From an uncultured Acidobacteriota bacterium (lineage in GTDB: Bacteria; Acidobacteriota; JAQAZP01), in assembly GCA_963836075.1 (NCBI GenBank), contig CAWIIB010000009.1, positions 1,696,001-1,760,000 on the forward strand: a stretch of 64,000 bases of DNA, given 5' to 3'. Below, piece after piece: positions 8,529 through 55,364 of the stretch (position 1 is the stretch's first letter; every line of letters starts with the position of its first letter). The position numbers were made by a program, and so were the translations under genes. The notes beneath the pieces are model-generated. The model saw nothing but the letters and a program-made list of their open reading frames with translations. It ran no database searches and was not told the DNA's origin.

Positions 8529-8535
8529 AGAGCCC

Positions 8536-10859: not shown

Positions 10860-12178
10860 TCTCCTTTCTGCTCTATGCACTGCTGTTCCTGGCCTTCTTC
10901 GTCAACAGTCTGACGGCGTATCAGATCGTGCCCTATTTCTTTTCCTGGTTTATCGAGGGCATCATCGTCCTGCTGTTGTTCATCGCCCTGGCCTCGAAGA
11001 CGAAATCCAGGGACCGGCAGATCTACACCTTTGGCTGGCCCTTCGTCCTCCTCTTCCTCGCCGTCTCCGCCATATCCTTTGTGCTGAACGATACGCGGTT
11101 CCAGCTTGCGCTGCTCTTCTTGCGGCAGACCCTGCGTTTCCACCTGCTGTTCTGGGTACTGCTCACCCTGCCCATCCCGCAGAAGACGATCCGCCGGATT
11201 CACACGCTGCTGGTCTGGCTCTTCCTGCTCCAGATCCCCACCGCCATCGTCAAGCTGGTCATCTTCGGCCATGGTGAACGGGCCATCGGCACCTATGCCA
11301 TCCGGGGCGGGGGCAACTCCACCGTCATCCCGATGATCGCGGCAGGGTTCATCATCTGCTTCCACTACATCCACCGGCCCCGCATCACCTCGTGGCTGTT
11401 CCTGTTGGGATTCCTGGTCTTTGGCCTGGTGGGTGACAAGCGCGCCGTGATCCTGCTGGTCCCCATGGTCATCATCTTCTCGGCGTGGACCATCATCGGC
11501 CGGCGGCTGGAGATGAAGAAGGTGGTGAGCGTCATTTTTCTTTCCATCATCGTGATCGCGATCATTTTCTATGCCGGGGTCAGATTGTTGCCGACCCTCA
11601 ACCCGGACCACAAGGTGGGCGGCCGGTTTTCCCTCGATTTCGCCATCAGTTACATCAAGAACTACAGCGTGGGCTACTCGGGTGTGCGCCACCTCTCCTA
11701 CGGCAGGGTGGAAACCACGCGGAGAATCCATGACCACCTCAAGCGGAGGGGACCCGCCACCTGGCTGTTCGGCATGGGACCGGGCACCTTCACCAAGTCG
11801 AGCTTCGGCCAAAGAGACAAGCACTTCATGGAGGACCAGTTGAGCGGCGTGGGGGTGGCGTACGGGATCATGTCGCTGAACTTCCTGGCTCTGCAGGTGG
11901 GCTATCTCGGCGTGATCTCCTGGATGGGCTTTTTTGTCTACGCCCTGGTGGTGGTGCGGCGCAAGGCGTTGCGGGAGACCGACCCCTACTGGAAGGCCTA
12001 CCAGTCGGGCATGGTCTCCCTCTGCTTCGTCGCCCTGATGATCTCCCTGACCTACAATAATGTCTTCATGGAAAGCGATCTGATCGCCATGGTATATATG
12101 ATGCTGCTGGCCTTTTCGCTGCGGCGCGGCCGGCGTCCCAGCGTCCGGCGCGTGGTGCCGCTGGGCCGGCCTGCATGA
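10856..12178 (+). CDS. Putative polysaccharide polymerase (Wzy/O-antigen ligase-like)
   Basis: ATGA overlap start; ~10 TM helices with a large periplasmic loop (FGMGPG) in a Wzx operon. Confidence 0.65.
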   Translation: MISFLLYALLFLAFFVNSLTAYQIVPYFFSWFIEGIIVLLLFIALASKTKSRDRQIYTFGWPFVLLFLAVSAISFVLNDTRFQLALLFLRQTLRFHLLFWVLLTLPIPQKTIRRIHTLLVWLFLLQIPTAIVKLVIFGHGERAIGTYAIRGGGNSTVIPMIAAGFIICFHYIHRPRITSWLFLLGFLVFGLVGDKRAVILLVPMVIIFSAWTIIGRRLEMKKVVSVIFLSIIVIAIIFYAGVRLLPTLNPDHKVGGRFSLDFAISYIKNYSVGYSGVRHLSYGRVETTRRIHDHLKRRGPATWLFGMGPGTFTKSSFGQRDKHFMEDQLSGVGVAYGIMSLNFLALQVGYLGVISWMGFFVYALVVVRRKALRETDPYWKAYQSGMVSLCFVALMISLTYNNVFMESDLIAMVYMMLLAFSLRRGRRPSVRRVVPLGRPA

Positions 12179-12193
12179 ACCTGGGGGCTGGGC

Positions 12194-12997
12194 ATGAGAC
12201 GTCCGCTGAACAGGGTGGCCAACCTGGTCATCACCACCAAGAACCACATTTTCGGCCGGCAACTCCGGCCGTTCACCGCCTTCTTCGATTCGAGGTATCC
12301 CCCGACCAAGTTCCTCTCCCTGAAAAAGCCGATGGTGAACATCCGCTGCATCCTCTGCGGTTATCCGCGCAGCGGCACGGCCTGGATCCTCAACGTGATC
12401 AATCAGAGCACGTCGCACAAGACCGCACAGATCCAGAAACGCACGGTCACCCCGGGGGACAGGGAGATCTGCCTGATCAAGGTCCACGCGCGCAACAGGC
12501 TGGTGGCCCGGCTCAAGACCCTGCTCATCCTGCCGCGGCACCGTTTCGGGGGGAAGTACATCTACGTCTACCGTGACCCGCGCGACGCGATCCTCTCGCT
12601 CTACGAGATGTACAAGAATTCCAAGGACACTCCGGACCTGTCCCAGGAGGAGTTCATCAGACAGACCGATCCCATCGGTCAATACAAGTGGGAAATTCAG
12701 GACTGGGTGCTCAAGCCGCACAAGAATGTGTTGCTGGTCCGCTACGAGGACCTGAAGGAAGATCCGGTGGCCATGTTCCGTCGGATTTTCAGCTACCTGG
12801 GTATCGACGATCCGGTGAACGAGGAGGCGCTGGGCCAGAGGGTGGGCGGGGCCGACCGCAAGGACCGTCCCCGGGCCACCGCTTACGGGTGGAAGAACGC
12901 TCCGCCGGAATACCGGCACCTCATCGGGGCGATCAACGATCGCCTGGCCGGGGAAATCAAAGCGCTGAACTATGAAATCGAACGTCCTCTTCATTGA
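12194..12997 (+). CDS. Sulfotransferase domain protein
   Basis: GYPRSGTAWI, YRDPRDAILS, VRYEDL. Confidence 0.88.
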   Translation: MRRPLNRVANLVITTKNHIFGRQLRPFTAFFDSRYPPTKFLSLKKPMVNIRCILCGYPRSGTAWILNVINQSTSHKTAQIQKRTVTPGDREICLIKVHARNRLVARLKTLLILPRHRFGGKYIYVYRDPRDAILSLYEMYKNSKDTPDLSQEEFIRQTDPIGQYKWEIQDWVLKPHKNVLLVRYEDLKEDPVAMFRRIFSYLGIDDPVNEEALGQRVGGADRKDRPRATAYGWKNAPPEYRHLIGAINDRLAGEIKALNYEIERPLH

Positions 12998-14147
12998 CAC
13001 CGGAGACTTCGAGTCGTTCCCGCCCGGGGGGACCCTCAACTTCGCCAAGCAGATGCTCTCCTCGTTTGGCAACCGGCTCTGCCTGGTGGGGATCACCACC
13101 GACGGGCTGCCGGTGGGCCGCTGGGTGGAGCGGGAGATCGGCGGGGAGACCTACGACTACTTCGCCGTGGGCCGTCGCGCCGCATCGGCGAAGAAACCCC
13201 TGGTCCCGCCGCGCATCTCGGGATACCTGCAGCTGCGCCGCCACCGGGAGGAGATCCTGGCCCGGGGTGTGCGAAGCGTGTTCATCCAGACCCACCACGT
13301 GATGCTGGCGGTGCACGACTGGCCCTGGGAACATGTCTGTTTCCGCTTCCCCGGCGTGGAGAACCCGCTGGCCATCTCGCGCTACCCGGGGGTGCAGTTG
13401 CTGGCCCGACCCTTTGCCCGGCGGTTCTATGGCGCCGTGCAGCGGGCCGACTGCATCCTGGCCGCGGCCGATGATCAGGCGATAACCGGGATGGTGGGAC
13501 AGAGCGGCGGTCTTCTCAGCCGCGAGCAGGTGACCGGTTTCCCCACGCGGGTGGACACCGAACTGTTCCGCCCCGCCTCCCGTTCCCGCAGCCGGCAGCA
13601 GGCGGGGTTGCCGGAGACGGCGGTGGTGCTGGCCAGCTGCGGCCGGATCCACTGGGCCAAGGGCTGGAAGCTGCTGATCGACGCCTTTGCCATACTGCTC
13701 CAGACGCACCCGGACGCGTATCTCTGCTTCATCGGGGACGGCCAGGACCGGGGCCGACTGGAAACCTATGCCGCCGAGAGAGGAGTCAGCGAGCGCATCC
13801 GCATCACCGGCTTCCAGCCGCCACGCCTGGTGGCTGCCTGGCTCAATGCCGCGGACGTCTATGTCTCCGGCTCGCTGCGCGAGGGGTGGTCCACGGTGAT
13901 GATCGAAGCCCAGGGGTGCGGCCTGCCCATTGTCACCACCCGGGTGAGCAGCGCGGGGGAAATCATTGCCCCGGGCCGCACCGGGTATATTATTGACGGG
14001 CGCGACCCCGACGACTTTGCCGCGGCGGTGCGGAACGCTCTCGCCCTGGAGAACGTCGGGGATATTGCGGTGCCGCATGCTGACCGATACGCACTGAAGC
14101 ATCTGAAAGAGGATCTCGAAACGCTGTTCCCACCCTTGCGAGCGTGA
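12972..14147 (+). CDS. Glycosyltransferase family 4
   Basis: [24 protein letters not shown]. Confidence 0.88.
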
Positions 14148-14773
14148 CCATGATCAGACCCGACAACCAGCGGACCACCGGAAACGACCCGCTATCCAAT
14201 GTGCGGCCGGGGCGTTCCCCGGCAATGTTCAAGCTGCGCCTGCTGCTCAACTCGCTGCGCTCCTGGCTCTATTTCAGACTGCGGGCGCCGTGGGTCAGGA
14301 GAAGCGGGATGGTGCGCGTCCCCTGGAGCGTCAGGATGTTCTCGCCCCACCGGGACATCAGCCTGGGCAACCGGGTGCAGTTCGGCCGGGGCTGCCTGAT
14401 CCAGTGCGATTGCCGTTTCGGCGACAACATTCTGATGGCCCGGGACGTGGCGTTCATCGGACGGGACGACCACCGCTACGACATGGTGGGAGTGACTCTC
14501 TGGGATTCGCCACGGGGCGACACCAGGAAGACGGTGGTGGAGGACGATGTATGGATCGGGTTTCGGGTGACGATCCTCGCCGGGGTGACCATCGGCCGGG
14601 GCGCCATCGTCGCCGCCGGGGCCCTGGTCACCGAGGACGTTCCCCGTTACAGCATCGCCGGGGGTGTTCCCGCACGGGTCATTGGAACGAGATTCACCAC
14701 CGAACAGATTGTGGCCCACGAGGACGCTCTGGGCTACGCGGAGCGCAGCGGAACCACGGACGGGATGCCATGA
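14144..14773 (+). CDS. Hexapeptide-repeat (LbH) O-acyltransferase
   Basis: VEDDVWIG...[24 protein letters not shown]...GGVPARVI. Confidence 0.9.
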
Positions 14774-15636
14774 ACAGCTTGACCCACAGGATATTGATGA
14801 CGCGGCGGCACTGGCTGAAGCGGGTGCAGTACCTGATGATGCGGCACCCGTTGCCGTTGACCCGCCATGGCCGGCAGGCGTTCAGCACCGGGCCGCGCAT
14901 CTTTGCCAACAGTATTCCCAAGGCCGGGACGAACCTGATCAAGCGCACGGTCAACCTGCTGCCCTGCGTGGTGCCCCGCTGGACCTACCACCTGGACCAG
15001 CGGATCCCCGGCACCATGAAGCAGCTGCAGTACACCCACAAGGGCCAGGCGGTCACCGCGCACATGGGGTGGAGCGCTGATCTGGTGGCCCTGCTCAGCT
15101 CGCGGGAGTTCAGGATCCTCTTCATCCTGCGCGACCCGCGCGACGTGCTGGTCTCCTTCGTGGACTATGTCACCCGCAAGGACCCCAGCCACCTGCTCCA
15201 CGCCTACTTCAATACGCTGCCCTCGGATGACGAACGGTTGCTGGCATCGATCATCGGTGTGGACGGGCGGCATCTGCCTTACGGCATTCCCCTGCTCTCG
15301 GCGGGGGAGCAGCTTGAAGCCTATCTCCCGTGGCTCGACGAGCCCGGCTGCCTGACCTTCTCCTTCGAGGACCTGGTGGGCAGTGCGGGCGGGGGCGATG
15401 ACGCGAACCAGCTGCGGACCGTCGCCGCCATCGTGGACCACCTGGGGTTGAAGGCCACCCGGAAGGAGATCGATGATCTGGCCGGCAGGGTGTTCTCCCG
15501 CAAAGTCCGGACCTTCCGCAAGGGCCGAATCAGGGACTGGCCCAACCATTTCACCGGGCGGCACAAGGAGGCGTTCAAGGAGAATGCCGGCGACACCCTG
15601 ATCAGGCTGGGCTATGAAACCGGAAATGACTGGTGA
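14770..15636 (+). CDS. Sulfotransferase domain protein
   Basis: ATGA overlap start; [28 protein letters not shown]. Confidence 0.88.
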
Positions 15637-16418
15637 GCGGAGTGGACGAACGGGTTGCAGTGAGCGGCGAGCAGTTGCTGGACTACCGGGTGGTCAACGA
15701 TGGTGCGGACCGCCTCGTCGAATCCATCGGGACCTGGATAGAAGAGGGGGACCGCTGCAGGTGGTTTGCCTGTATGAACCCGCACTCCTGGGTCGTTGCC
15801 CGGTCCAACGCTGTTTTTGCCCGGGCGCTGCGCCAGGCCGACTGGCTGGTGCCCGACGGGCAGGGCATCGTGCTGGCCTCCCGGCTGTTCGGGGGCAGGA
15901 TACGGGAACGGGTGACCGGCAGCGATGTGTTCAACGGCATCAACGGCTTCCTGGACCGCACCGGGGGTCGGGTGTTTTTCCTGGGGTCCACCGAGGAGAC
16001 CCTGGACGGCATCAGGCAACGGAGCGGCCGGGACTGGCCGGGCATTGCCATCGCGGGGACCTGGTCGCCGCCCTTCGTGCCCCGGTTTTCCGCAGAGGAC
16101 ACCGACCGGATGGTGGAGGCGATCAATGCCGCCCGGCCCCAGGTGCTCTGGGTGGGAATGACCGCGCCCAAGCAGGAGATGTGGGTTTTTGAAAATTTCC
16201 ACCGTCTGGAGACGGTGCGGTTCGCGGGGGCCATCGGTGCGGTCTTCGATTTCTACGCCGGGAATATCAGGCGCTCGCACCCGCTGTTCCTGCGGACGGG
16301 GCTGGAGTGGCTGCCCCGGCTGCTGCGGGAGCCGCGCCGGCTCTGGAGACGGAACTTCGTCTCCACACCGCTGTTCCTCTTCCACCTCACCGCCCGCCGC
16401 CTGGGAGTGAAACAATGA
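15633..16418 (+). CDS. WecB/TagA/CpsF family glycosyltransferase (GT26)
   Basis: NPH, PDGQG, RVTGSD, VGMTAPKQE, GAVFDF, GLEWLPRLLREPRRLWRR. Confidence 0.92.
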   Translation: MSGVDERVAVSGEQLLDYRVVNDGADRLVESIGTWIEEGDRCRWFACMNPHSWVVARSNAVFARALRQADWLVPDGQGIVLASRLFGGRIRERVTGSDVFNGINGFLDRTGGRVFFLGSTEETLDGIRQRSGRDWPGIAIAGTWSPPFVPRFSAEDTDRMVEAINAARPQVLWVGMTAPKQEMWVFENFHRLETVRFAGAIGAVFDFYAGNIRRSHPLFLRTGLEWLPRLLREPRRLWRRNFVSTPLFLFHLTARRLGVKQ

Positions 16419-17515
16419 CGGGTGTCCGCACCCTGTTCGCCCTGGCCGCCGGAGACCGGGCAGCGGCTCTTCCCTGCGATGCTGAGCAGACAGCTATTGA
16501 TCTGCTGGGCCCCCGGCGCTCGCTGTTCCTCCGCCTGATCCCCCGCATTACCCGTACGCTGGCCCGGGCCGGAGCTCTGGGAAGCATTTCGGAGCGCCTG
16601 GCCGCCGACCTGCACCGGTTCTCCCAGTCCCTGGTGGCCCACGACCTGCACCAGCAGCAGTGGCTCCGCCGGTTCCTCACCGAGCGGCGGCCAGGGGACA
16701 TCCCGGTGATCCTGCTCAAGGGCACCGCCTTCTCGGGGTCGCTCTATCCGCCCGATGCGCCGAGACTGTCACAGGATATCGACCTGCTGGTCAAGCCGGA
16801 ACAGTTCCACCGCATGTGCGAAATCCTCGCTGCTGAAGGGGAGCCGCTGAAGGTTGATACGGGGCGGAGATATACCTGGAGCAGGCTTTTCGAGGCCGTC
16901 TTCCGCATCCCCGGCGCGCTGCCCCTGCTGGTGGAAGTTCACCGGGATCTCACCAGGGCGCACCAGTTCCGTATCGAACACCACGGCCTCTGGGAGCGGA
17001 GCGATCAGAGCCCGGAATACCAGGACCCGGCGGTGCGCCAGCTGTCGCCGGAGGATACGCTGCTCCACCTCGCGCTGCATGAATACAGGCACGGCGCACC
17101 CCAGCCGCACAGTTACCTCGACGCCTGGTCGGTGCTCAACCGCTGGACCCCGGACCTGGGCCGGGTGGTCCAGCTGGCCCGCCGGTGGGGCTGTTCGACC
17201 ATCCTTTACTCGCTGCTCCGCCGGGTGGAATATTGGTTCGATCCGGAGGGGTGTGAAGGGGATGGCCTGGAAGGCGTGCTGCAGGCGCTGGAACCGTCAG
17301 GCATCAAAAAGGCCGTGCTGGACAGGCTATTCCCCTGCAACTGCTTCGAGCCGGTGCGCCATACCTGGCCCTGGCCCCAGCGAACCGCGTCGCTGTCGCT
17401 GCTGGACCACACCTCCCGCATACCACGCTTCGCCTTCTCCTACCTGGCCCACCGCAGCGCCGACCTGGCCCTGCTCCTCATCGATCGCATCAGCGGAGCC
17501 ACTACAGGGCGCTGA
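16415..17515 (+). CDS. Nucleotidyltransferase family protein (NTP_transf_5 type, often lasso-cluster associated)
   Basis: LLKG, RLSQDIDLLV, VEVH, DTLLHLALH; ATGA overlap with the upstream gene. Confidence 0.8.
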   Translation: MTGVRTLFALAAGDRAAALPCDAEQTAIDLLGPRRSLFLRLIPRITRTLARAGALGSISERLAADLHRFSQSLVAHDLHQQQWLRRFLTERRPGDIPVILLKGTAFSGSLYPPDAPRLSQDIDLLVKPEQFHRMCEILAAEGEPLKVDTGRRYTWSRLFEAVFRIPGALPLLVEVHRDLTRAHQFRIEHHGLWERSDQSPEYQDPAVRQLSPEDTLLHLALHEYRHGAPQPHSYLDAWSVLNRWTPDLGRVVQLARRWGCSTILYSLLRRVEYWFDPEGCEGDGLEGVLQALEPSGIKKAVLDRLFPCNCFEPVRHTWPWPQRTASLSLLDHTSRIPRFAFSYLAHRSADLALLLIDRISGATTGR

Positions 17516-17592
17516 CCGGATCTCGCCTGTCCCTTTCCCCTGACCAGGTGCCGCTCTATACTGGGGTACACCTGCTCAGTTCCGGAGGCACC

Positions 17593-19431
17593 ATGGGCGC
17601 ACTTCTGGCGGTGCTGGGGGAAGCCGGTGATCCGGCGCTTCCCGGCCTTCTTCAGCGAATGACCGAGCGATCGCCTTACTGCGGCGCCGTGGAGCGGCGG
17701 ATCGAGGGCGGACTCGCCGTGGCCGTGCAGTCACTGGGCTGGGACGCCTCGCTGGCCGTGGCTGCGGACCGGCTGGTGGCCGTGCACGGCTACCTGGGCC
17801 GCTGGGAGCGCGAGGCCCGGGGCCTGGACCTGGACCCCGCCTGGCCCGCGGCGAAGAAGCTGGCGCTGGCGCACCGCCAACTGGGGCCCGACCTGTTTCC
17901 CTTGCTGCGCGGCGAGTTTGCGCTGCTGATCCACGACCTTGAGCGGCGACACCTTCTCGTCCTGCGGGATGTGGTGGGTTGCCGGCCGCTGTTCTTTGAA
18001 CAGGCGGGAGGCCGGGCCTTTCTGGCCACCGAGATCCAGCAGGTACTGGCCGGCTCCGGCAGCACGCCGCGGTTGAACAGCGATGCCGTGGTGGACTACC
18101 TGCTCAACCGTCCGCTGGCTCGGGAGGAGACGATCCAGTTGCCCGTTCGCCGGGTGCTGCCGGGGCGGAGCTATTCCTTCGGCGGCGCCGAGCCCTGCTC
18201 CCCGCCCCGACGGACCGAATACTGGACCCCGCCGCAGGTCCGCCGCCCCGCACCCGGCATGGAGGAACTGGTCCATCAGCTGGGGTCCCTGCTGCGGAGC
18301 GCACTGCAGGCCTCCCTTCCGGACCGGCCCTTTGCGCTGGCGCTCAGCGGGGGAGTGGATTCCCCCACACTCTGGGGGCTGCTGGCCCGTCTGGCCGCCG
18401 ACGGGGACCGGCAGGCGGCAAATGGCGCCCCGTTTTCGCTGGTCTACCCGGGGATGGAGTGTGACGAGCGGCCGCTGATCGAACAGGTGCTCCAGCGCAG
18501 CGGTTCGGCTGGCCGGTTCATCGACATGACCGGCCGCGGGCCCCTGGAAGCCTACCCGGAGTTGCTGGCCATCACCGGGACGCTGTTCCCCCTGACCCTC
18601 TACCAGTTCGGCCCGCTTTTCGAAGCGGCGGGCCGCGAGGGCCGGAATGTTCTGCTCACCGGCCTGGGGCCGGACGACTGGCTGCGGGGCAATCTGGGGT
18701 ATATTCCCGACCTGCTGCTGCGGGGAAGGCTCCCCAGCGCCCTCCGCGACACGTTCACTTTCGAGCTGCCCCATGGGCTTTCCCGCCCGGCGCTGCTCAG
18801 GCGGCTCCTCGGACAGGCCGGCAGGCGTTTTCTACCCCGGTTGCGCCGCGATACCCGTCCGCCGTGGCTCACCAAAACGGCCTGGCAGCGGGCGGGAGCG
18901 GGGACATGCCGCTATCCCTGGGACCGGGTCCGCATCCCCCTGGCCCGCCGGGCCCTGCTCCGCGATCTGGAGCGCTATCGCAGCGGTCTGTTTCTCGAGC
19001 CGGCGGCCCAGTTCGCGGCCAGCGCCGGGATGGAACTGCGGCACCCGCTGCTGGGCGTGGATTTTGTGGAGTTCGCCTTCCGTTCCCCGGCCCGGGCGTT
19101 CATCGGCGGCCGGCGGTTTAAGGATCTCCTGCGCCTGTCCGCCGGAGATCTCCTGCCGCCGGAAGTTCGCGACAAGACCCGGCGGGTGGTGTTCGACTGC
19201 CTTTTCGGGCCCGCGGTCCGGCGATTTGCCGAAATTGGAAACCCGCATGGTGTTGAATGTGTACGTTGTGATATATTAACGGCTACAGAAACATCAAAGC
19301 GTTACTACAGATTGGCGACAGAAGGTACGGTTGGATCGTCCACTCTTCATGATGTTCGGATTCATATTGCGGAGAGCCTTTTCCAACATTTTCTAATGCA
19401 ACGGACAGAGGTGGGCGATAAGACCTGCTAG
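17593..19431 (+). CDS. Asparagine-synthetase-like lasso peptide cyclase (C protein)
   Basis: GEFA, RDVVGCRPLF, PP-loop ALSGGVDS, TGLGPDD, ELRHPLL; no N-terminal catalytic Cys (MGALL...); RBS GGAGG; next to the precursor and in a cluster with B1/B2. Confidence 0.85.
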   Translation: MGALLAVLGEAGDPALPGLLQRMTERSPYCGAVERRIEGGLAVAVQSLGWDASLAVAADRLVAVHGYLGRWEREARGLDLDPAWPAAKKLALAHRQLGPDLFPLLRGEFALLIHDLERRHLLVLRDVVGCRPLFFEQAGGRAFLATEIQQVLAGSGSTPRLNSDAVVDYLLNRPLAREETIQLPVRRVLPGRSYSFGGAEPCSPPRRTEYWTPPQVRRPAPGMEELVHQLGSLLRSALQASLPDRPFALALSGGVDSPTLWGLLARLAADGDRQAANGAPFSLVYPGMECDERPLIEQVLQRSGSAGRFIDMTGRGPLEAYPELLAITGTLFPLTLYQFGPLFEAAGREGRNVLLTGLGPDDWLRGNLGYIPDLLLRGRLPSALRDTFTFELPHGLSRPALLRRLLGQAGRRFLPRLRRDTRPPWLTKTAWQRAGAGTCRYPWDRVRIPLARRALLRDLERYRSGLFLEPAAQFAASAGMELRHPLLGVDFVEFAFRSPARAFIGGRRFKDLLRLSAGDLLPPEVRDKTRRVVFDCLFGPAVRRFAEIGNPHGVECVRCDILTATETSKRYYRLATEGTVGSSTLHDVRIHIAESLFQHFLMQRTEVGDKTC

Positions 19432-19452
19432 TGGATTTGCAGAGGAGGGTAA

Positions 19453-19650
19453 ATGTCAATCAGAGATTATCCAGCGTCTGCCGATCGTCCGGGCCTCGAG
19501 CCGATGGATGATCGGAAACACCCACCGTGCGGCACCGCCGGGCTGCGGCCTTATCAGCCACCGGTGGTAAAGGTCTTCCCGGTTGCCGAGTTGGTACGCA
19601 GTGGCGGCGGCTCCAACACAGATGCATTTGGTGAGGGCGAATTCGAGTAG
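19453..19650 (+). CDS. Lasso peptide precursor (A)
   Basis: RBS AGGAGG; leader YQPPVV...VAELVR followed by core SGGGSNTDAFGEGEFE with Asp at position 8. Confidence 0.8.
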   Translation: MSIRDYPASADRPGLEPMDDRKHPPCGTAGLRPYQPPVVKVFPVAELVRSGGGSNTDAFGEGEFE

Positions 19651-19743
19651 GACGTGCTCACCTCATACCGGCCACCCTGCCCGGTCAAAGCCCGTGGTCT
19701 TCACGGCATCCGGCAGGGCCGCTGGTCAGAAAGGGGAAAGGTG

Positions 19744-20388
19744 ATGGCCTTCAAGTGGAAAACGTGGACGGCCGGTTGGCTGCTCATGATCTGCTGGTTG
19801 ATGCTCCCGGCGGTTCTTGTTGCTGAAGAGGGGACGACCCCTGATGCTGATCTCATGCCAGCAGATATGTCTCCCGACATCACGAAAATGTTTGGTGCGC
19901 CCAATCCTTCCAGTGTCGGCATCGACTTCGCACCGCCTGACGGGAGTCCCCGGCCGGCACCGGTCACTGTCCGGCAGTGGACCATCCGTGACGATGACGC
20001 CGAACCCTGGTGTTTCGAGCTGGCGGCCGGCCCCTGGACCACGGTGCTTCTCGAGGACTTTACAACGGGCCCGCTCACCTCGTATGTGGAACTGAACTAC
20101 AGTGCGCAGTTCAATGTCTCCGGCGGAGCAGGTCCATTCAACGGCATCATGTTCCGGGCGCGTTTGGTGCAGGACGGCGTCGAAGCCTGGTTCCCCGGCG
20201 GTGGTGAGGGGTTCGCCCCCTTCCTCTCCCGACGGGACCTGGGTTCCAGCGGCCAGTTCATGTTCGGCAATTTTGTCGGCATGCTGAATGTGGACTCCGG
20301 TACGGAGACCCGGCTGATCATCGAACTGCGAGCCACTGATCTGGACGGCACGGCCTGTTTCCAGAACATCGTCGTACGCAACGACTAG
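19744..20388 (+). CDS. Secreted hypothetical protein, paralog 1 of 3
   Basis: Signal peptide; shared motifs PAPVTVR, TSYVEL, VQDG, FPG, ACFQN, C-terminal RND. Confidence 0.75.
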   Translation: MAFKWKTWTAGWLLMICWLMLPAVLVAEEGTTPDADLMPADMSPDITKMFGAPNPSSVGIDFAPPDGSPRPAPVTVRQWTIRDDDAEPWCFELAAGPWTTVLLEDFTTGPLTSYVELNYSAQFNVSGGAGPFNGIMFRARLVQDGVEAWFPGGGEGFAPFLSRRDLGSSGQFMFGNFVGMLNVDSGTETRLIIELRATDLDGTACFQNIVVRND

Positions 20389-20428
20389 GGATGCGGCCGG
20401 AATCAGCCGCTTAGCGGAAAGGGGAGGA

Positions 20429-21007
20429 ATGATGGCCACCAGGATCCGGAAGAGGGTTTTCAGCACGCTGCTGCTTGTCAGCTTGCTGTTTCTGCTGCCG
20501 GGCGTGGCAGCCGGGGAACCGGCTTCGCCAGGTCCGGGCCGTGCAATGAGTGTTCCCGATGGTGAAGCGCTGCCGGCACCGGTGACTGTCCGGACCATAC
20601 GCTACCATGATGACGATTCATTGCCTTTCTGCCTTGAATGTCCCGCCGGCTCATGGAGGACTCTTGCCCGGAATACCTTCAGCACAAATCCCACCACCTC
20701 CTACGTGGAACTGGATTGGACGGGACAGTTCACGGTAATCAGCACCAACCCGGCACTGGAGGGCATCCGCTTCCGGGCCGGCCTGGTCCAGGACGGACAG
20801 TCGATGGCTTTCCCCGGGGCCGGCGATGACGGTTTTCCGTTTATGGCGCGGTGCGACTTCTCCGGGCAGGGGCCCCAGTGGTTCGGCGGGTTTCACGGAA
20901 TGCTGCTGGTGGAGCCTGACACCGACACCACCCTGGTGATCCAGGTCTATTCCACTGCGCCGGAAGCCTATGCCTGCTTCCAGAACGTGACCATTCGTTA
21001 CGATTGA
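20429..21007 (+). CDS. Secreted hypothetical protein, paralog 2 of 3
   Basis: Signal peptide (…VAA); PAPVTVR, TSYVEL, VQDG, FPGAGDD, ACFQN, RYD. Confidence 0.75.
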   Translation: MMATRIRKRVFSTLLLVSLLFLLPGVAAGEPASPGPGRAMSVPDGEALPAPVTVRTIRYHDDDSLPFCLECPAGSWRTLARNTFSTNPTTSYVELDWTGQFTVISTNPALEGIRFRAGLVQDGQSMAFPGAGDDGFPFMARCDFSGQGPQWFGGFHGMLLVEPDTDTTLVIQVYSTAPEAYACFQNVTIRYD

Positions 21008-21079
21008 TCAACTTCCGGTCGCCCTCGGGCATCGGGTCACCGCAACCGGTGAAGACTGAAAACGTAAAGGGGGAAGTCG

Positions 21080-21664
21080 ATGACCTCCAGGAGCAGAAAT
21101 CGAATGTTTGCGGGAATGGTCATGGCCGCCGTGCTGCTGTTCCCGGTATGTGTGCCGGCACAGGATGCGGCGGGCACGGATGATGTGTTCTCACTCATCC
21201 CCGAGGCGATCGGCGGAGATCCGATGCCCGCGCCGGTGACCGTCCGTTTCTGGAATTACCGTGACGCGGTTGCCGAGCCGTATTGCGCGGATTTGCCGCC
21301 GGGCACCACGGTGGATCTGTTTACGCAGACCTTTACCACCAATGCCACCACCAGCTATATCGAGATGATCTGGACCGGGCAGTTCACCGTCCCTTCCGGG
21401 GTCACCGAGGACGAGGGGATTTACTTCCAGGTGCAGATGGTCCAGGACGGTGTGCCCGTCTCCTATTTCCCGGGAGCGGGGGATGACTTTCCGCCGCTGA
21501 TGACCCGGCGGGATGACAGTGCCGCAGGTCAGATGATGTTCGGCGGCTACCGGGGCATCATTGCCGCGCAGCCCAACCTGTCCACCACCATCACGGTCAG
21601 GGCGTACTCCACCCAGAAGCCCGGGCTGGCCTGCTACCAGAACCTGAGTCTGCGATACGATTGA
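21080..21664 (+). CDS. Secreted hypothetical protein, paralog 3 of 3
   Basis: Signal peptide (…VPA); PAPVTVR, TSYIEM, VQDG, FPGAGDD, ACYQN, RYD. Confidence 0.75.
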   Translation: MTSRSRNRMFAGMVMAAVLLFPVCVPAQDAAGTDDVFSLIPEAIGGDPMPAPVTVRFWNYRDAVAEPYCADLPPGTTVDLFTQTFTTNATTSYIEMIWTGQFTVPSGVTEDEGIYFQVQMVQDGVPVSYFPGAGDDFPPLMTRRDDSAAGQMMFGGYRGIIAAQPNLSTTITVRAYSTQKPGLACYQNLSLRYD

Positions 21665-22696
21665 TCGTGGTTTCTCATTGCGCTGAAATCGTCTGCCGGG
21701 GCAGCGGGGAAGGAGGCGCCGACGCCCTTCCCCTCCGGCTGCCGGTTGAAGGCGTGAGCCTTGAACTCCTCTCCGCGGCCTTGCGGCCCCTGCATCTCAC
21801 CGCCGGTCCCGGCGGAAGCCGATCGGATCTTCAGCCATCTGTTCCACCATTGCGTGTCCAGCCTCTGCCCGCACCTCTTCCCGGTGGCGGGCCGGCCGGG
21901 CGCGGAGGGCGGGTGCTGCCGCTGATCACCCGCCACCACAGCGGCGACACGCTGAAGCTGGCCGGCGGGTACGCTCCGTCTCCGGCCCGCCGGCGGCGAC
22001 ACCATCTCCTGTTCCCTGGACAGAATGTCGCAACGCCGGGGCACGCTGCCTCTGCTGCTGGAGATGGCGGTGATCCATGCGCTGGCGCTGGAGGGGATCC
22101 CGGTGTTTCACGGGGCGGGGTTCACCTTTGGCGGTGAAGCCGTGCTGGCCCTGGGCCCGAGCGGTGCGGGCAAAACCACCCTGGCGGCCGCTGCGCTCCG
22201 CGCCGGGGGGCAGGTGATCTCCGACGATTCGCTGATCGCACGCCGCCGCCGGTGCGGGGCGCTCGCAGTGCAGCCCTTCCGCCGCGACCTCCAGGTGCGG
22301 CGGGGGAGCCGCCGGCTCTTTCCCCGGGCCATCGCCCCCCTGCTGGAGCCGCTGACCGGCGCCGTGGAGCCGAAGTGGGTCCTGCGGCGTGAGGCGGCTG
22401 CATCCTGCTTCACCGATGATGTATCCTTGAGCCGCATCTGGATCCTTACCCTGGACCGCCGGTTGCGCGGCTGCCGGATCAGCCCGCTCCGCCAGGCAGA
22501 AGTGCTGGTGGCGCTGATCCAGGGCTCGTCACCGCTCTATCTTTCGGACCGCTATCCCCGGGAACGGGCGGCGCTGCTGCCGCTGCTCCGTTCGCTGGTG
22601 GAACAGGTCCCGGCTTACGGGATCCGGCTGGGCAAAGCGCTGCTGGAGGAACCGGTGGCGGAACTGGAGCGACTGCTGGCCTTTCACGGAGCTTGA
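21661..22696 (+). CDS. HPr-kinase-like P-loop kinase (lasso-associated type), frameshift near 21968
   Basis: FHGAG, GPSGAGKTT, ISDD; removing one G from GGG at 21967-21969 joins 21661.. to 22025..22696. Confidence 0.75.
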
Positions 22697-22716
22697 CCCC
22701 GCCGGAGGAGGATCGC

Positions 22717-24390
22717 ATGGCGCCGGCCATTGAAACCAGAGGACTGGGCAAGGTCTACCCCCGGGCGACCAAAGTTGCCGGGATCCCCCTCGGCTTCTCG
22801 GCCCGCGGCGGTGCTCCCGCCCTGGATGGTGTGGACCTGACCCTGGAAGAAGGGTCCATCTTCGCCCTGATGGGTCCCAATGGCGCGGGCAAATCGACCC
22901 TGGTGAAGATCCTCTGCACGCTGGTGCTGCCCAGCACCGGCCAGGCGCGGGTGGCGGGGTTCGAGTTGCAGCGCGAGCGGGAGGTCAAGTCCCGTATCGG
23001 CCTGGTCACACCCAACGAGCGGAGCTTCTTCTGGCGGCTGTCCTGCCGGGAGAACCTGCGGTTCTTTGCCGGCCTGTACGGCATCACTGGTTCCCGCGCC
23101 GAGGCGCGGGTGGCCGAGCTCTCGGATCAGCTCAACCTCGACGACGTCCTGCACAAGCGGTTCGATGCCTGCTCCACCGGTATGAAGCACCGTCTGGCCC
23201 TGGCCCGGGGGCTGATCCACCGGCCGCGGGTCCTTTTTCTCGACGAACCCACCCGGAGCCTCGACCCGCTGGCCGCCAACCGCTTCCGGCAGCTGCTGGC
23301 CCCGCTGGCCCACCATACCGGGCTGACCATTTTCCTGGTGACCCATGATCTGGAGGAGGCGGTGGAGCTGGCCCACCGGGCGGGAGTGATGGTTGACGGG
23401 AAGCTCCGGCTGTTCCAGCGGCCCGAACAGCTGCGGCAGGCCATCGGCGCGGCCAGCAGCGGCGAGGTCTCCTGGGAGTCGTTGCTGGACCATGTCGCTG
23501 CCGGACCGCCGGAGACCGTGGAGCCGCCGGCCCGTCCGGCCGTTCACGGTGAGCGCAGTGATTTTCCGGCTCCCCGGCCGGGGGCCGCCGGGCAGCTGCT
23601 GCTCTTCCTGCGGCGGGATCTGCTGACCCAGCTCAGCTACCGTTTCAACTTCCTGCTGGACATCGGCGGCGTGGCCCTGATCGTCACCGCGTTCTACTAC
23701 CTAGCCCGGCTGTTCGGGGATGGCCGGTCCACACATCTGGCCAGCACTGGCGGCGACTATTTCTCCTTCGTGCTGGTGGGCATCGCCTTTCTCGGTTATC
23801 AGAACGTGTCGCTCCGCACCTATGCCGACGCCATTCGCCGCGGTCAGCTCACCGGCACGCTGGAGCAGATGCTGGCCAGTCCCCTCTCCCTGCCGAAGAT
23901 TCTCCTTTTCTCCGGCCTCTGGCCCATCCTCTTCGGGGCGTCGCGGCTGCTGATCTACTTCCTCGTGGGCGTGCTGGTCTTCAAGGCTGACCTGGGAGCG
24001 GCCAACATCCTCGCTTCGCTGATCATCCTGCTGCTCTCCGTAATGGCGCTCAGCGGGTTCGGTCTGCTCTCCGCCAGCTTCATCATGGTCTTCAAGCGGG
24101 GTGACCCGGTGAACTTTCTTCTCGGCGGCCTTTCGGTGCTGCTGGGTGGGGTCTACTTCCCGGTGTCGGTGCTCCCGGCCTGGCTGGAGACCCTGGCCCG
24201 GTTCTTTCCCCTGCGCTACACCCTGGACGCCATGCGCGGGGCGCTGATTCGCGGGGAGCCGATCTCGGTGCTGGCCTCGGAGGCGCTGGTTCTGCTGCTG
24301 TTCAGCGTGGTGTTGCTGCCGCTGGGACTGTTCTTTTTCCGCCTGGCGGTGCGAATCACCAGACGGGCCGGCAGCCTGGGGCAGTTCTGA
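22717..24390 (+). CDS. ABC exporter, ATPase fused to an ABC-2-type permease
   Basis: Walker A GPNGAGKST, CSTGM signature, FLDEPT, VTH; C-terminal 6-TM region with GTLEQML and GVYFPVSVLPAWL. Confidence 0.88.
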   Translation: MAPAIETRGLGKVYPRATKVAGIPLGFSARGGAPALDGVDLTLEEGSIFALMGPNGAGKSTLVKILCTLVLPSTGQARVAGFELQREREVKSRIGLVTPNERSFFWRLSCRENLRFFAGLYGITGSRAEARVAELSDQLNLDDVLHKRFDACSTGMKHRLALARGLIHRPRVLFLDEPTRSLDPLAANRFRQLLAPLAHHTGLTIFLVTHDLEEAVELAHRAGVMVDGKLRLFQRPEQLRQAIGAASSGEVSWESLLDHVAAGPPETVEPPARPAVHGERSDFPAPRPGAAGQLLLFLRRDLLTQLSYRFNFLLDIGGVALIVTAFYYLARLFGDGRSTHLASTGGDYFSFVLVGIAFLGYQNVSLRTYADAIRRGQLTGTLEQMLASPLSLPKILLFSGLWPILFGASRLLIYFLVGVLVFKADLGAANILASLIILLLSVMALSGFGLLSASFIMVFKRGDPVNFLLGGLSVLLGGVYFPVSVLPAWLETLARFFPLRYTLDAMRGALIRGEPISVLASEALVLLLFSVVLLPLGLFFFRLAVRITRRAGSLGQF

Positions 24391-24429
24391 TGACGGCGGA
24401 ACGGTGCGGCAATGTGTGAAAGGGACGGC

Positions 24430-24861
24430 ATGGTGAGCGAGATCAGCCTGTTTCTCCGGGCCCTGCGACTGGTGCGCCTGGCCCAGCAGGTCAGCGCGGA
24501 GCCGGTGGACCTGGTGGCGCGGCGGATGCTCGAACAGCCGTGGCTGCCGCGCAACCTGTCACCCCCTTCGGCAGCGCGGGCGGCCGGCCGGGCCAGCCGC
24601 TGGTGGTCCCGTCTGACCACCGGGCTGGACAGCTGCCTGACCCGCACGCTGGTCACCGCGGTCCTGCTGGCCGATCGCCCCGGCGTGGTGCTGCATGTGG
24701 GTTTCCGCCCGTCGGAGGGAAGCGGGGCGCCCCACGACGGGCATGCCTGGCTCACCCTGGAGGGCCGGGATCTGCCCGAGGCCTCCACAACTGCCGAGCC
24801 CGGTGAACCATACACCGAACTGCGGACCATCCCGCTGGCCCGTGACGGAGGGGAGGGGTGA
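24430..24861 (+). CDS. Lasso peptide leader peptidase B2 (transglutaminase-like)
   Basis: Catalytic motifs SCLTRTL, VGF, GHAWL. Confidence 0.88.
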   Translation: MVSEISLFLRALRLVRLAQQVSAEPVDLVARRMLEQPWLPRNLSPPSAARAAGRASRWWSRLTTGLDSCLTRTLVTAVLLADRPGVVLHVGFRPSEGSGAPHDGHAWLTLEGRDLPEASTTAEPGEPYTELRTIPLARDGGEG

Positions 24862-25136
24862 TGAGCGTTCTTGGCGAACTGGCCCGGGCCCTCCGCTCGG
24901 ACAGCCTGGCCCGCACCGAACTGGCCGACGGCACCGGTGTGATCCTCCATCTGGATGGTGCGCAGATTTACTCGCTCAACGACACCGGCATGTTCCTCGT
25001 CGGTCGGCTCTGCGCTGGCGAGGAGAACGCCGACCAACTGGTGCGGGCCCTGGCCTCCGCCTTCAACATCGACGAAATCACCGCCCGCCGCGACCTGGAC
25101 CGCTTCGCCACCGAGCTGCATCGCCTGCTCTGCTAA
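24858..25136 (+). CDS. PqqD-family RiPP recognition element (lasso B1)
   Basis: IYSLNDTGMFL...LASAFNIDEITARRDLDRFATEL, typical RRE. Confidence 0.88.
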   Translation: MMSVLGELARALRSDSLARTELADGTGVILHLDGAQIYSLNDTGMFLVGRLCAGEENADQLVRALASAFNIDEITARRDLDRFATELHRLLC

Positions 25137-25137
25137 G

Positions 25138-25294
25138 TGGGGACAGCTACCTGGCTACCCAAGCTATTGATTTCAAACACCGCCAGGAAAGTGGGGACAG
25201 TTACCATTTTCCGATATCAATTAATTGGTGACTGTCCCCGGCTTTTCCAAGTAGTTGAAAGGCAAGTTGATGGCGGGAGAGGTAGCTGTCCCCA
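25138..25294. repeat. Nested palindromic element (REP/MITE-like)
   Basis: Outer IR TGGGGACAGCTACCT (25138-25152) / AGGTAGCTGTCCCCA (25280-25294); inner IR GGGGACAGTTACCA (25193-25206) / TGGTGACTGTCCCC (25226-25239). Confidence 0.7.
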
Positions 25295-25326
25295 TAAAAA
25301 GAGGGGCACCACTTTCGTGATGCCCC
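25295..25326 (-). terminator. Rho-independent terminator of the minus-strand acyl-CoA operon
   Basis: Minus strand GGGGCAUCAC-GAAA-GUGGUGCCCC followed by UCUUUUUA. Confidence 0.8.
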
Positions 25327-25349
25327 CCATGAACAGCGATTCAGCTGAA

Positions 25350-27440
25350 TCAGATTTTCACGGTCTTTTTATACATCCCGCCGATGACGCCGCCGAGGCA
25401 GGCCCTGGTGGTCATGAAGTCGCCGGAGTGGCGGGCCTGGACATCCAGTGCTTCGGCCAGCGGCACCGAGGTGGAACCCTTGATGTTGGCCAGGATCGCT
25501 TCGCGGCCGGCCTCCATCCCCGGGTCACCGGCCGGGCTCAGCTGGGGCACCATGTCGGCCACGCCCTGGAGCGCCCCGTCGGCGAACTCCTGTGGCGGCA
25601 GGCCGCCATCGGTGCCCGAGGCCGTCTTCCAGGCCACGGCGATGGCCTCCTCCAGCGGCCCGGCAAAGTCCACCAACCAGCCCAGGGCCTTGGGTGCCCG
25701 CACCGCCCGCCCTTCCAGGAGGAAGGAGAGCAGCCGCGGCCAGTGTTCCTTGGCCGCCCGGCGGAAGGGCCAGTGGCAGCCCTCCATGCCCGGCACCACC
25801 GGCAGGGTCACTTCCGGCATGCCCACAGAGGCATCGTCCACGGCCACCAGGTGGTGACAGTGCATCAGCAGTTCAAGCATTCCGCCCAGGGCGCGCTTGC
25901 CGTTGACAAAGCCCACCGACACGGCGAACTCGCTGCGCAGCCGGCGGGCGGTTTCGGACCAGCCCTTTGCAATGGCCACGCCCATCTCGGCGTCCTCGAG
26001 GGCGGGGAAGAAGTCGCCGGTGTCGGCGCCGGTGAGCTGGGTGGTGAGGTGGAAGTCGCCGGTGACGATCACCCGCTCGATCCCCTCGCTCTTCAGCCAG
26101 TCGATGGCGCGGCTCATCTCGGCATTGACGTCGCTATTGTATGCCTCGCGGCCGATGCTGATCACGCCCACCGTGCCGTCGTGCTCGGCATTGACGTAGA
26201 GCTGCTGCCACTCGGGCGAACCGATGGCGTCAAAGGCCTCGGGGTGCCAGGCGCCGCCCGCCGCCTCGGGGTGCAGCTGGTGATACTGCTCGACGAGAGC
26301 CCGGGATGCGTCGGCGCCGCGGGCCCGGATCACCGCCGGCAGGCCGCGGGTGAACTGGGCACAGAGCTCGCCGATGGCGTTCATGGTGGCCAGGTGCGAC
26401 CGTTTCTCGTGGACCATCAGGCTGGTCATCTGGAACATCGGTCCCAAGAGGCGGGTCTCGAACTCCTGGTTCTCCTCATCGCTCAGCGCCCAGTCCACCA
26501 GCGGGCGGAAGTGGTTCAGCGGGTACCAGTTCTGTCCGCTGATCCGCTTCTCGTTCAAAACGTCGCTGGGGGTGAACAGGTCGCCGTAGTGCTGGCTCAG
26601 GTGGTGCAGGCAGCTCCAGGTGAGGAAGTTGGCCCCGGCGGCACCGATGGCGTCGTGGGCCCGGAAGGGGTTGGGGCCGATGAGACGGCGGACGAACTTG
26701 TCGATCTTCCAGTAGGGCATGTTGCTCGCCTCGTGGTAGCGCGAGGCGGCCAGGGTCAGCCCGCAGAAGAAGACGTCGAGCACGAAGGCCCAGTCGTCGC
26801 TGACCATCATCGGGATCAGGCCCAGGGCCCAGAGCAGCTGGGTTACCGACGAGGGCTCGTTCTCCACGATCTCGTAGATCTTGTTGATCTCGTGGGGGAA
26901 GGCCGGGTGGGCGATGCCCACGCCCAGCTGCGACTGGGGAAAGCCCGAGGTGACCGAGCGGATTTCGATCCCGGGAAACGTTTTGGTGAAGATGTCGAAG
27001 TGCGCCTTCTTGATCTCGAGGATTTCGGGGATCGCTTCCAGCAGGAAGCGCGGATTGAAGTCCTTGAGGCGTGGGGGCAGGCTCTTGCCGTCGTAGGAGA
27101 ACTGCACCACGTTGGACATCACATTGGCTGCGCCATCCGCGCCGAAGGCGCGCACCAGGCCTGGGTACTGCTGGCCGATGCCGTCGGGCACGCCGGGGAA
27201 GTCGAGGGCCACGATGGGGATGCCAAAGGGCTCGAGACGGGAGCCCAGCTGCATCACCTTGCCGGCGCCGACGATGCCGTTGGCCCCGGAGACCACCAGG
27301 GCCCCCCGCCGGCCGGCCGGGCCGAAGACCTTGTCCACCAGTTCGCCGGTGTTGGCCGGCAGCTTGCCGCTGGCAAAGATGTCGATCACGTTTCCCAGGC
27401 CGAGGGTGCTGAGCGTTGAAGGCCTCATTGCGTTCTTCAT
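25350..27440 (-). CDS. 3-hydroxyacyl-CoA dehydrogenase / enoyl-CoA hydratase fusion (HAD-ECH order)
   Basis: N-terminal Rossmann-like SGANGIVGAG and LEAIPEILEIKK; C-terminal crotonase GADT, ALGGMLEL, GMPEVTL. Confidence 0.8.
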   Translation of the reverse strand: MKNAMRPSTLSTLGLGNVIDIFASGKLPANTGELVDKVFGPAGRRGALVVSGANGIVGAGKVMQLGSRLEPFGIPIVALDFPGVPDGIGQQYPGLVRAFGADGAANVMSNVVQFSYDGKSLPPRLKDFNPRFLLEAIPEILEIKKAHFDIFTKTFPGIEIRSVTSGFPQSQLGVGIAHPAFPHEINKIYEIVENEPSSVTQLLWALGLIPMMVSDDWAFVLDVFFCGLTLAASRYHEASNMPYWKIDKFVRRLIGPNPFRAHDAIGAAGANFLTWSCLHHLSQHYGDLFTPSDVLNEKRISGQNWYPLNHFRPLVDWALSDEENQEFETRLLGPMFQMTSLMVHEKRSHLATMNAIGELCAQFTRGLPAVIRARGADASRALVEQYHQLHPEAAGGAWHPEAFDAIGSPEWQQLYVNAEHDGTVGVISIGREAYNSDVNAEMSRAIDWLKSEGIERVIVTGDFHLTTQLTGADTGDFFPALEDAEMGVAIAKGWSETARRLRSEFAVSVGFVNGKRALGGMLELLMHCHHLVAVDDASVGMPEVTLPVVPGMEGCHWPFRRAAKEHWPRLLSFLLEGRAVRAPKALGWLVDFAGPLEEAIAVAWKTASGTDGGLPPQEFADGALQGVADMVPQLSPAGDPGMEAGREAILANIKGSTSVPLAEALDVQARHSGDFMTTRACLGGVIGGMYKKTVKI

Positions 27441-54971: not shown

Positions 54972-55364
54972 GGTGATCCCTCCAAAGGGCTCCTCCTTTC
55001 AGACATGAACTATGATGGATGTGAACGGATTTAGAGGTGCAGGTGCAGGTGTAGGGGGCAGGAGGTGGCGCGTTCAATTGTGACGGCTCAAAGGTTCAAC
55101 AGATGTATGAAATAAACGTGCGACCTATGACTGTATTTGTCAAGTGGTAATTTCATTTCATTTGAGGTTATTCAATTAAGGTTTTTTATTGCAATGAATA
55201 ACATGATCATCCTTCTGATGGTTGGCGATCGCAACCTGACTCAGCTCGGTTCCCAGGCCCCATACTGAGTTCCCGTCCGAGGCGGTGCTAAAGTTCCGGC
55301 GGCAGTACACGGTGATGTACTGCCTGTGCTTAGAGGGCTCTAACCGCGTACGAATGTACCAGCT

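Follow-up and report, generated by a model that had tools for sequence, protein, structure and literature searches.

Kinase-type, or paeninodin-like, lasso peptide clusters have been described in Bacilli where, according to the parts of PMC13381572 used here, they are often embedded in capsule loci and are co-expressed with a polysaccharide gene. Section 12 of this 2026 study states that the roles of the peptides are unknown, and speculates on a role in biofilms. Here, we examined a 64-kb window of DNA (the whole stretch that was analysed, from contig CAWIIB010000009.1 of an uncultured Acidobacteriota bacterium), in which three tandem paralogous genes, T1, T2, and T3, lie inside a lasso cluster of this type. 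The protein family that they represent, which we call the T family, is rare and undescribed, and no library recognises it. T genes keep the slot between the precursor and kinase genes in two divergent clusters, one in the window and one on a contig from another organism (L001). We tentatively propose that T1-T3 are exported, non-enzymatic binding or scaffold proteins for the mature lasso peptide, a reading to which we give somewhat less than an even chance.

The genes of the cluster all lie on the plus strand, in the order N-C-A-T1-T2-T3-K-D-B2-B1 (Table 1). The markers of a lasso cluster are all present, namely the cyclase (C), the leader peptidase (B2), and the recognition element (RRE; B1) typical of pathways for ribosomally made peptides with post-translational modifications (RiPPs), as are the markers of the kinase subfamily, the HprK-like kinase (K) and the NTP_transf_5 nucleotidyltransferase (N). 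Because C and the candidate precursor A lie upstream and K, the transporter D, B2, and B1 downstream, all on one strand, the trio belongs to the lasso operon, as an earlier reading of the sequence alone (hereafter, the sequence-only reading) had claimed, and its place inside a complete kinase-type cluster is confirmed.

T1-T3 are three intact, consecutive open reading frames (ORFs). For T1 we took the ATG start, as a longer ORF opening with GTG at 19654 finds no support from relatives, and the database copy of T2 starts one ATG later, giving 191 amino acids. A hidden Markov model of the family, run against six-frame translations, detects three copies, and no more, in the window, and a single copy in L001. 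In BLASTP comparisons (50-sequence database), the pairs are 41-47% identical over 149-195 residues, with E values of 4e-35 to 7e-44, a similarity far beyond chance that bears out the description of the three genes as tandem paralogues. Their alignment contains 51 invariant columns, which include every motif listed in the sequence-only reading (PAPVTVR, P[WFY]C, TSY[VI]E, QF.V, GI.F, VQDG, FPG.G, AC[FY]QN, and a terminal R[YN]D) as well as the two Cys residues that it took to be conserved (C90 and C205 in T1). At the DNA level, four conserved blocks recur at spacings of 619 and 654 nt, and identity by codon position is 0.52-0.63 at positions 1-2 and 0.39-0.46 at position 3. This is the pattern of old duplicates under protein-level constraint rather than of recent copies.

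Each of the three proteins begins with 2-4 Lys or Arg residues and a hydrophobic stretch (best 10-residue Kyte-Doolittle mean 2.4-3.3), followed by an Ala-x-Ala-like site. From inspection, we infer that these N-termini are Sec signal peptides; the signal peptide claimed for each protein is therefore upheld as an export-type N-terminus, by inspection and hydropathy, with secretion itself a prediction. The Pro/Asp linker, also claimed for each, is long and Pro/Asp-rich in T1 but not as long in the other two. When Chou-Fasman propensities are averaged over a family alignment of 50 sequences, the mature part comes out as 48% strand, in about 10 segments, and 0% helix, which crudely supports the label of beta-rich proteins. 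The mature domains are strongly acidic (isoelectric point 4.1-4.6, net charge -6 to -15), and aromatic residues make up 10-13% of the proteins. Before each T gene, a strong AG-rich ribosome-binding site can be read by eye, and such strong individual sites would suit abundant, stoichiometric proteins. Other signals did not rise above background: a hairpin in the spacer after the precursor gene was no better than shuffles (z -1.18), as were those in the other two spacers; a terminator and promoter scan of 16000-25600 stayed at the background level, with 8 terminator-like sites where shuffles had 6.0 +/- 2.2; and Rfam gave no match in the window.

Library searches agreed with the sequence-only reading, which recognised no family for the trio. 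The trio had no Pfam match at E <= 0.01 and no NCBIfam match, while 7 of 44 relatives compared with Pfam at E <= 0.1 had one sub-threshold match each, to seven different families, and none of the matches of the 44 reached the gathering score. PADLOC matched 0 of 6 T-family proteins, PHROGs gave only sub-threshold, non-recurring matches (best E 0.0097), and sequence searches of the PDB with seven queries returned only two chance-level matches (6d0t_A, E 0.87; 7zgt_A, E 0.28). Comparing a 50-sequence profile with the single sequences of E. coli OmpX and Blc by hhalign, a test of low power, gave a probability of 0.2% for each. Relatives are also scarce: when 5.8 billion proteins were searched through a word index, five clusters other than self came up, and the same type of search with the 50-sequence profile found at least 7 proteins. 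Among 1.84 billion representatives, searched exhaustively with a profile, 45 proteins reached E <= 1e-3, of which 24 were at <= 1e-10 and 9 at <= 1e-30. All 27 family proteins whose records we examined come from metagenomes or metagenome-assembled genomes (MAGs), most of them on contigs of 1-3 kb. A genome scan with an 8-sequence family profile found no relative, a scan with the relatives P0017 and P0019 matched only L001, and neither P0025 nor T3 had a tblastn match in plasmids. The main texts of PMC8498205, PMC9266682, PMC5067487, and PMC13381572, in the portions used here, mention no exported beta-rich accessory family. Likewise, among titles and the openings of abstracts, a survey that did not extend to the primary paeninodin paper, we found no publication on such genes in lasso clusters, and the remark in the sequence-only reading that it knew of none from characterised lasso clusters agrees with this literature.

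Across the family, the features of the trio are widely shared. A hydrophobic segment following basic residues begins 45 of the 50 aligned members, and the Cys68/Cys183 pair (T2 numbering) is present in 42; the window trio lacks a second Cys pair, which lies at columns 117 and 130 (33/50 and 28/50). Conservation is highest at Gln100 and Gln121 (47/50 each) and Tyr155 (45/50), together with Gly, Pro, and Cys68/Cys183, and these columns contain no catalytic-looking set, whether Ser/His/Asp, Cys/His, or metal ligands. At the column of Tyr191, 37 of the 50 have Tyr, which is the last residue in the majority of the distant members. Comparison of the halves and thirds of the domain revealed no internal repeat (probability <= 0.4%); nothing points to a trefoil or to duplication of a Greek-key unit. 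The linker is variable, but distant members carry a motif S-L-x-[DE]-x-x-G about 25-35 residues before the domain, and some near members have a similar hydrophobic-Phe/Leu-Gly motif. In a subgroup formed by P0022, P0026, and P0030, two members have N-terminal extensions of ~130-210 amino acids, and P0022 gives a non-significant match (E 0.12) to the C-terminal part of a phage tail-fibre family; the T domain may also occur as the C-terminal module of larger proteins.

L001 is a 929-kb (929,060 bp) contig from a MAG titled uncultured delta proteobacterium, and carries P0017, which is 36-42% identical to the window trio. One strand encodes, in order, a cyclase, a 76-amino-acid precursor-like ORF, P0017 as the single T gene, and a 330-amino-acid HprK-like kinase, with B2-B1 divergent just upstream; T is one of six clustered genes, and again sits between A and K. 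The 76-amino-acid ORF (9700-9930) has YERPSV in the same register as YQPPVV in the window precursor, and the two align without a gap over 29 residues across the leader/core junction. The cyclase homologue is 39% identical to that of the window and is read in two frames (7798-9689, frame 1 to about 9021 and frame 3 from about 9267), reflecting either an assembly error or a pseudogene. Neither an ABC (ATP-binding cassette) pump nor an N gene was matched within 20.6 kb. Polysaccharide genes lie on the other strand (GT4, heparinase II/III-like, epimerase, GT2). Convergent on B1 is a lipoprotein-like ORF (5703-6959) with a Gly/Ser-rich spacer and tandem Cys-rich repeats, which has no Pfam match.

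Further relatives extend this picture. P0019 is 50% identical to P0017, and the cyclase homologue P0062 is 50% identical to the L001 cyclase, while the L001 cyclase and P0062 are each about 39-40% identical to the window cyclase. Since P0017/P0019 and their cyclases both stand at 50% identity, and P0017 and the two cyclases are further from their counterparts in the window, T appears to be co-inherited with the cyclase. P0019 and P0062 each report a single Logan contig of 8,165 bp and, to judge from this equal size, seem to share one 8-kb contig. By the same logic, a second genome appears to keep all three T lineages, as the longest contigs recorded for P0013, P0009, and P0014 all measure 449,674 bp and come from one source. 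Of the seven known sizes of T-bearing contigs of at least 5 kb, only two (929,060 and 8,165) are also found in the list of 52 cyclase homologues. The sequence-only reading had named homologues lying mostly outside RiPP and exopolysaccharide loci as a finding that would count against it; the near relatives, on L001 and apparently on the P0019 contig, do not show that pattern. For its near clade, the T family is tied to lasso clusters.

Based upon these observations, we favour a model in which T1-T3 would be Sec-exported, disulfide-stabilised, all-beta proteins without enzymatic activity, forming a dedicated extracytoplasmic component of a kinase-type lasso system built into a polysaccharide locus. 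Outside the cytoplasm, the lasso peptide in its mature, modified form would be bound by them and held, carried, or presented at the envelope or in the polymer matrix, with the three ancient paralogues probably acting together in this lineage. The model is suggested by the conserved slot, the co-divergence with the cyclase, the export signals, the lack of catalytic residues, and the strong individual ribosome-binding sites; that the proteins are exported, form a disulfide, have no catalytic activity, bind the peptide, and act jointly is in each case a prediction from sequence. An extracellular role also fits the published background on capsule-locus embedding, co-expression with a polysaccharide gene, and a speculated function in biofilms (PMC13381572, in the parts used here).

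Several points weigh against this model. The T domains and the predicted core peptide are both acidic and we found no charge complementarity, which makes direct charge-driven binding unlikely unless cations bridge the two. As there is no dedicated exporter near the L001 cluster, exit of the peptide from the cell is there only supposed. The P0022/P0026/P0030 subgroup has neither a signal peptide nor the Cys pair. Five of the seven T-bearing contigs (449,674; 42,120; 29,917; 27,821; and 5,695 bp) are unmatched among the 52 cyclase homologues listed, an absence that is weak evidence, as scoring was limited to the 7,998 candidates with the most words in common. For genomic context, the picture comes from the window and a single further locus, with one or two cases judged from contig size. 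Finally, both loci adjoin polysaccharide genes, so the link could be to the polymer rather than to the peptide.

Two other roles outside the cytoplasm deserve consideration. First, the T proteins could confer self-immunity by sequestering the peptide in the periplasm or on the outward side of the inner membrane, as LanI does, helped by the ABC-2 pump. LanI lipoproteins protect lantibiotic producers and the LanFEG transporters are ABC-2 pumps; here too, small exported-looking beta-rich proteins are encoded in a RiPP cluster with a pump of the ABC-2 type, which matches the lantibiotic-protection ATPase model TIGR03740 (2.8e-36). Moreover, P0017 and P0019 have a Cys right after the hydrophobic segment that may be a lipoprotein site, albeit with atypical preceding residues. 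However, a strict lipobox ([LVIMFA][ASTVIGLC][GAS]C in residues 11-40) occurs in 0 of the 50 members, and the window trio has signal-peptidase-I-type ends instead. L001 has a T gene yet no ABC pump in its 20.6 kb, the protein and the peptide are both acidic, and no antibiotic role is known for kinase-type lasso peptides, whose roles are stated to be unknown in section 12 of PMC13381572. We therefore consider an immunity function unlikely.

Second, the T proteins could bind the sulfated polysaccharide or build a matrix independently of the peptide, their place in the operon reflecting only co-regulation with the polymer. Polysaccharide genes adjoin both loci, four sulfotransferases among them in the window and GT4 and GT2 in L001, and strong ribosome-binding sites would suit abundant structural proteins. 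Many carbohydrate-binding modules are acidic and aromatic-rich, as the T proteins are. Yet the polysaccharide genes of L001 are on the other strand, whereas T stays between precursor and kinase, and the divergence of T tracks that of the cyclase. In addition, no carbohydrate-binding family was matched, and, without bridging cations, an acidic protein would be ill suited to binding a polyanionic sulfated polymer. A role in the matrix alone thus strikes us as improbable.

A more specific version of peptide binding draws on how old the triplication is. We built a maximum-likelihood tree from 21 rows of the 50-row family alignment, chosen by us to cover the near clades and three distant ones. In this tree, T1 groups with P0016, P0013, and P0015 (support 99/97), T2 with P0005-P0009 (100/99), and T3 with P0014 (100/99). 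The three clades form one group (85/89, not starred) beside P0017/P0019/P0022. Because each copy groups with its own orthologues, the three T lineages are older than the divergence from the organism that has P0013, P0009, and P0014. Lineages this old would be compatible with an obligate hetero-oligomer, although subfunctionalised monomers would look alike. Between these small clades, no position is conserved within each and different in all three, and 33 are shared by all. The sequence-only reading had suggested a beta-sandwich, possibly a C1q/TNF-like heterotrimer, serving as a receptor, scaffold, immunity protein, or lectin. The trio could be a heterotrimeric cell-surface jelly-roll of the C1q/TNF type, which captures the phosphorylated or glycosylated peptide and ties it to the sulfated polysaccharide via cations; we think this particular architecture quite unlikely.

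It is very unlikely that the T proteins are small outer-membrane beta-barrels giving the peptide of a diderm producer a way across that membrane. A ~150-residue domain with ~10 amphipathic strand segments, acidic and rich in aromatic residues, would be of a suitable kind, and the Tyr191 column, Tyr in 37 of the 50 and the final residue in the majority of the distant members, is reminiscent of barrel C-termini. On the other hand, the family has one or two conserved Cys pairs, which are unusual for small outer-membrane barrels, the aromatic residue is followed by a final Asp in the window trio, and long low-complexity linkers follow the signal peptide. The hhalign probability of 0.2% against E. 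coli OmpX points the same way, weakly, as one side was a single sequence.

The two remaining explanations are weaker still. The T proteins could themselves be substrates that K, N, or the sulfotransferases modify by phosphorylation, glycosylation, or sulfation, in the manner of the precursors of linear polyphosphorylated peptides (LPPs). LPP clusters have 1-3 precursor ORFs of up to 200 amino acids along with K and N, and lie in capsule loci (PMC13381572, parts used here), and the T proteins contain conserved Thr/Ser-rich motifs such as TFTT and TSY. However, LPP precursors combine a conserved YxxP-type leader with variable C-termini, and the T proteins do the reverse: [YW]xxPx[LVIFA] is found in 5 of the 50 members, at unrelated positions, and in 0 of the 3 window proteins, and the longer leader motif in 0 of 50. 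There is also no signal-peptidase-like gene among the cluster ORFs scanned, and a cytoplasmic kinase acting on a Sec substrate would be awkward, all of which makes this a most improbable account. Finally, a periplasmic enzyme that tailors or opens the lasso peptide has a precedent in the accessory periplasmic or secreted enzymes, such as isopeptidases, of some proteobacterial lasso clusters, but with no conserved Ser/His/Asp, Cys/His, or metal-ligand set in the best-kept columns and no enzyme-family or PDB sequence match, we give it hardly any credence.

Table 1. Features of the window, with coordinates counted from its first nucleotide.
Feature	Coordinates	Strand	Remarks
Polysaccharide operon upstream of lasso genes	733-16418	+	library matches
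N, NTP_transf_5 nucleotidyltransferase	16415-17515	+	PF14907, 1.1e-34 to 1.4e-34
C, lasso cyclase, asparagine-synthase-like	17548-19431	+	PF00733 1.9e-22
A, candidate lasso precursor, 65 aa	19453-19650	+	YQPPVV leader motif, acidic core
T1, exported-looking paralogue 1	19744-20388	+	214 aa; long Pro/Asp/Ser-rich linker, ~150-aa conserved domain
T2, exported-looking paralogue 2	20429-21007	+	192 aa; short linker
T3, exported-looking paralogue 3	21080-21664	+	194 aa
ORF between T3 and kinase ATG, frame 1	21661-22137	+	360-nt stretch 21661-22024; no family match
K, HprK-like kinase, P-loop part only, 223 aa	22025-22696	+	weak TIGR04355/TIGR04352
D, fused ABC ATPase + ABC-2 permease	22693-24390	+	PF00005 5.2e-29, PF01061 6e-14
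B2, lasso leader peptidase	24412-24861	+	NF033537 38.8 bits (cut-off 33); PF13471
B1, PqqD-type RRE, 92 aa	24858-25136	+	PF05402 3.9e-12, 46.7 bits (cut-off 23.4)

Candidate A had no Pfam or NCBIfam match, and was recognised by its leader, in which YQPPVV fits the RRE-binding motif [Y/W]xxPx[L/V/I/F/A] (PMC13381572, section 6). In the core, a Gly/Ser start is followed by Asp at position 7 or 8; the net charge predicted for this acidic core peptide is -4. The candidates of the window and of L001 both appear to follow the lasso leader/core pattern (Gly/Ser/Ala start, Asp/Glu at 7-9); they end in Glu (window) and Arg (L001), not in Ser. Neither has the usual Thr at the penultimate leader position, which is occupied, depending on the cleavage site, by Val in both, or by Arg in the window and Leu in L001.

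Details of the other cluster genes are as follows. The N ORF is open from 16307, with its likely start after the stop of WecG. Cyclase C matches the lasso cyclase model NF033535 at 8.8e-26, below the curated cut-off, and the NCBIfam matches of K are likewise below cut-off (TIGR04355, 4.7e-4; TIGR04352, 1.4e-3). K is 37% identical to residues 112-326 of the 330-residue L001 kinase, with the N-terminal ~110 residues absent. The frame-1 ORF ahead of it, whose TTG start overlaps the T3 stop, is the sole ORF covering the 360 nt before the kinase ATG and may be the displaced N-terminal part of the kinase, in which case the kinase is frameshifted or split; alternatively, K may be a short form. The best NCBIfam match of D is drrA (1.3e-61), and B1, which matches NF033530 at 7.6e-10, has a GTG start that overlaps the B2 stop. 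Downstream of B1 are convergent genes of the fatty-acid-oxidation type.

Upstream, the polysaccharide operon encodes a flippase, a pyruvyl transferase, an FrhB-like protein, GT4 glycosyltransferases, a hexapeptide acyltransferase, and WecG, as well as four sulfotransferase-domain proteins. Its content suggests that the product is a sulfated, pyruvylated exopolysaccharide, and the neighbouring sulfated-glycan locus of the sequence-only reading is recovered here as a sulfotransferase-rich operon that adjoins the lasso genes. The FrhB-like protein is an Fe-S protein. Elsewhere in the window, a TonB-dependent-receptor-like outer-membrane protein (CarboxypepD_reg plus beta-barrel; 52311-55077, minus strand) is split over two overlapping ORFs in different frames, and a 1198-amino-acid ORF (38697-42293) combines ABC-2 permease-like segments with a C-terminal M1 peptidase domain and is preceded by an ABC ATPase gene (37780-38700).

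As a family inherited with the cyclase, between precursor and kinase, the T proteins offer a handle on the role of kinase-type lasso peptides, and point to an event outside the cytoplasm. They constitute an accessory family in lasso clusters that is invisible to domain-based genome mining, because no Pfam or NCBIfam model covers it. Should the paralogues form one particle, bacteria would offer a clear example of tandem duplication giving rise to a hetero-oligomer. If the heterotrimer were also to capture the peptide as outlined above, a lasso peptide would for the first time have a dedicated protein partner outside the cell, which would directly show that kinase-type lasso peptides serve to build a matrix and not as antibiotics.

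How the trio relates to known systems depends on the feature that is compared. Heterotrimeric C1q is encoded by three tandem genes, and the T proteins resemble the C1q/TNF jelly-rolls in their ~150-residue domain, ~10 predicted strands, and three anciently diverged tandem paralogues. They differ in that neither the C1q nor the TNF Pfam family matches the trio (E <= 0.01) or reaches its cut-off in the 44 relatives, no PDB chain was matched above chance level, and the N-to-C Cys pair and the linker are not collagen-like. With LanI/LanFEG they have in common small, exported-looking, beta-rich proteins in a RiPP cluster beside an ABC-2 type transporter, but there is no sequence relation, and the missing lipobox in the trio, the lack of a pump near the T gene of L001, and the acidity of both protein and peptide set them apart. 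LPP precursors, in the parts of PMC13381572 used here, are 35-200 amino acids long, occur in one to three copies, and have a YxxPxVLxHQ-type leader and a signal-peptidase-I-like (SpI-like) peptidase. Like them, the T genes are 1-3 tandem ORFs in RiPP clusters containing K and N and associated with polysaccharide loci; unlike them, the T proteins have signal-peptide-like N-termini, no YxxP leader, and a conserved C-terminal domain, and no SpI-like peptidase gene was found in the cluster.

The closest described relatives of the whole cluster are the paeninodin-like clusters, as presented in the parts of PMC13381572, PMC8498205, and PMC9266682 used here. These share with the window the set of A, C, split B1/B2, HprK-like kinase, NTP_transf_5 protein, and exporter, the sulfotransferase genes nearby and the adjoining polysaccharide genes, and the YxxPxV leader motif of the precursor. 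The differences are that the described clusters are from Bacilli, whereas the window comes from a Gram-negative-type organism and its relative from an uncultured delta proteobacterium; that the window pump is of the ABC-2 type; that the C-terminal Ser, described as extremely conserved (PMC9266682), is replaced by Glu and Arg in our candidates; and that 1-3 T genes stand between A and K. On these comparisons, we read the cluster as a Gram-negative-type variant of the paeninodin-like lasso clusters, in which T1-T3 probably represent a new partner of the lasso peptide outside the cell.

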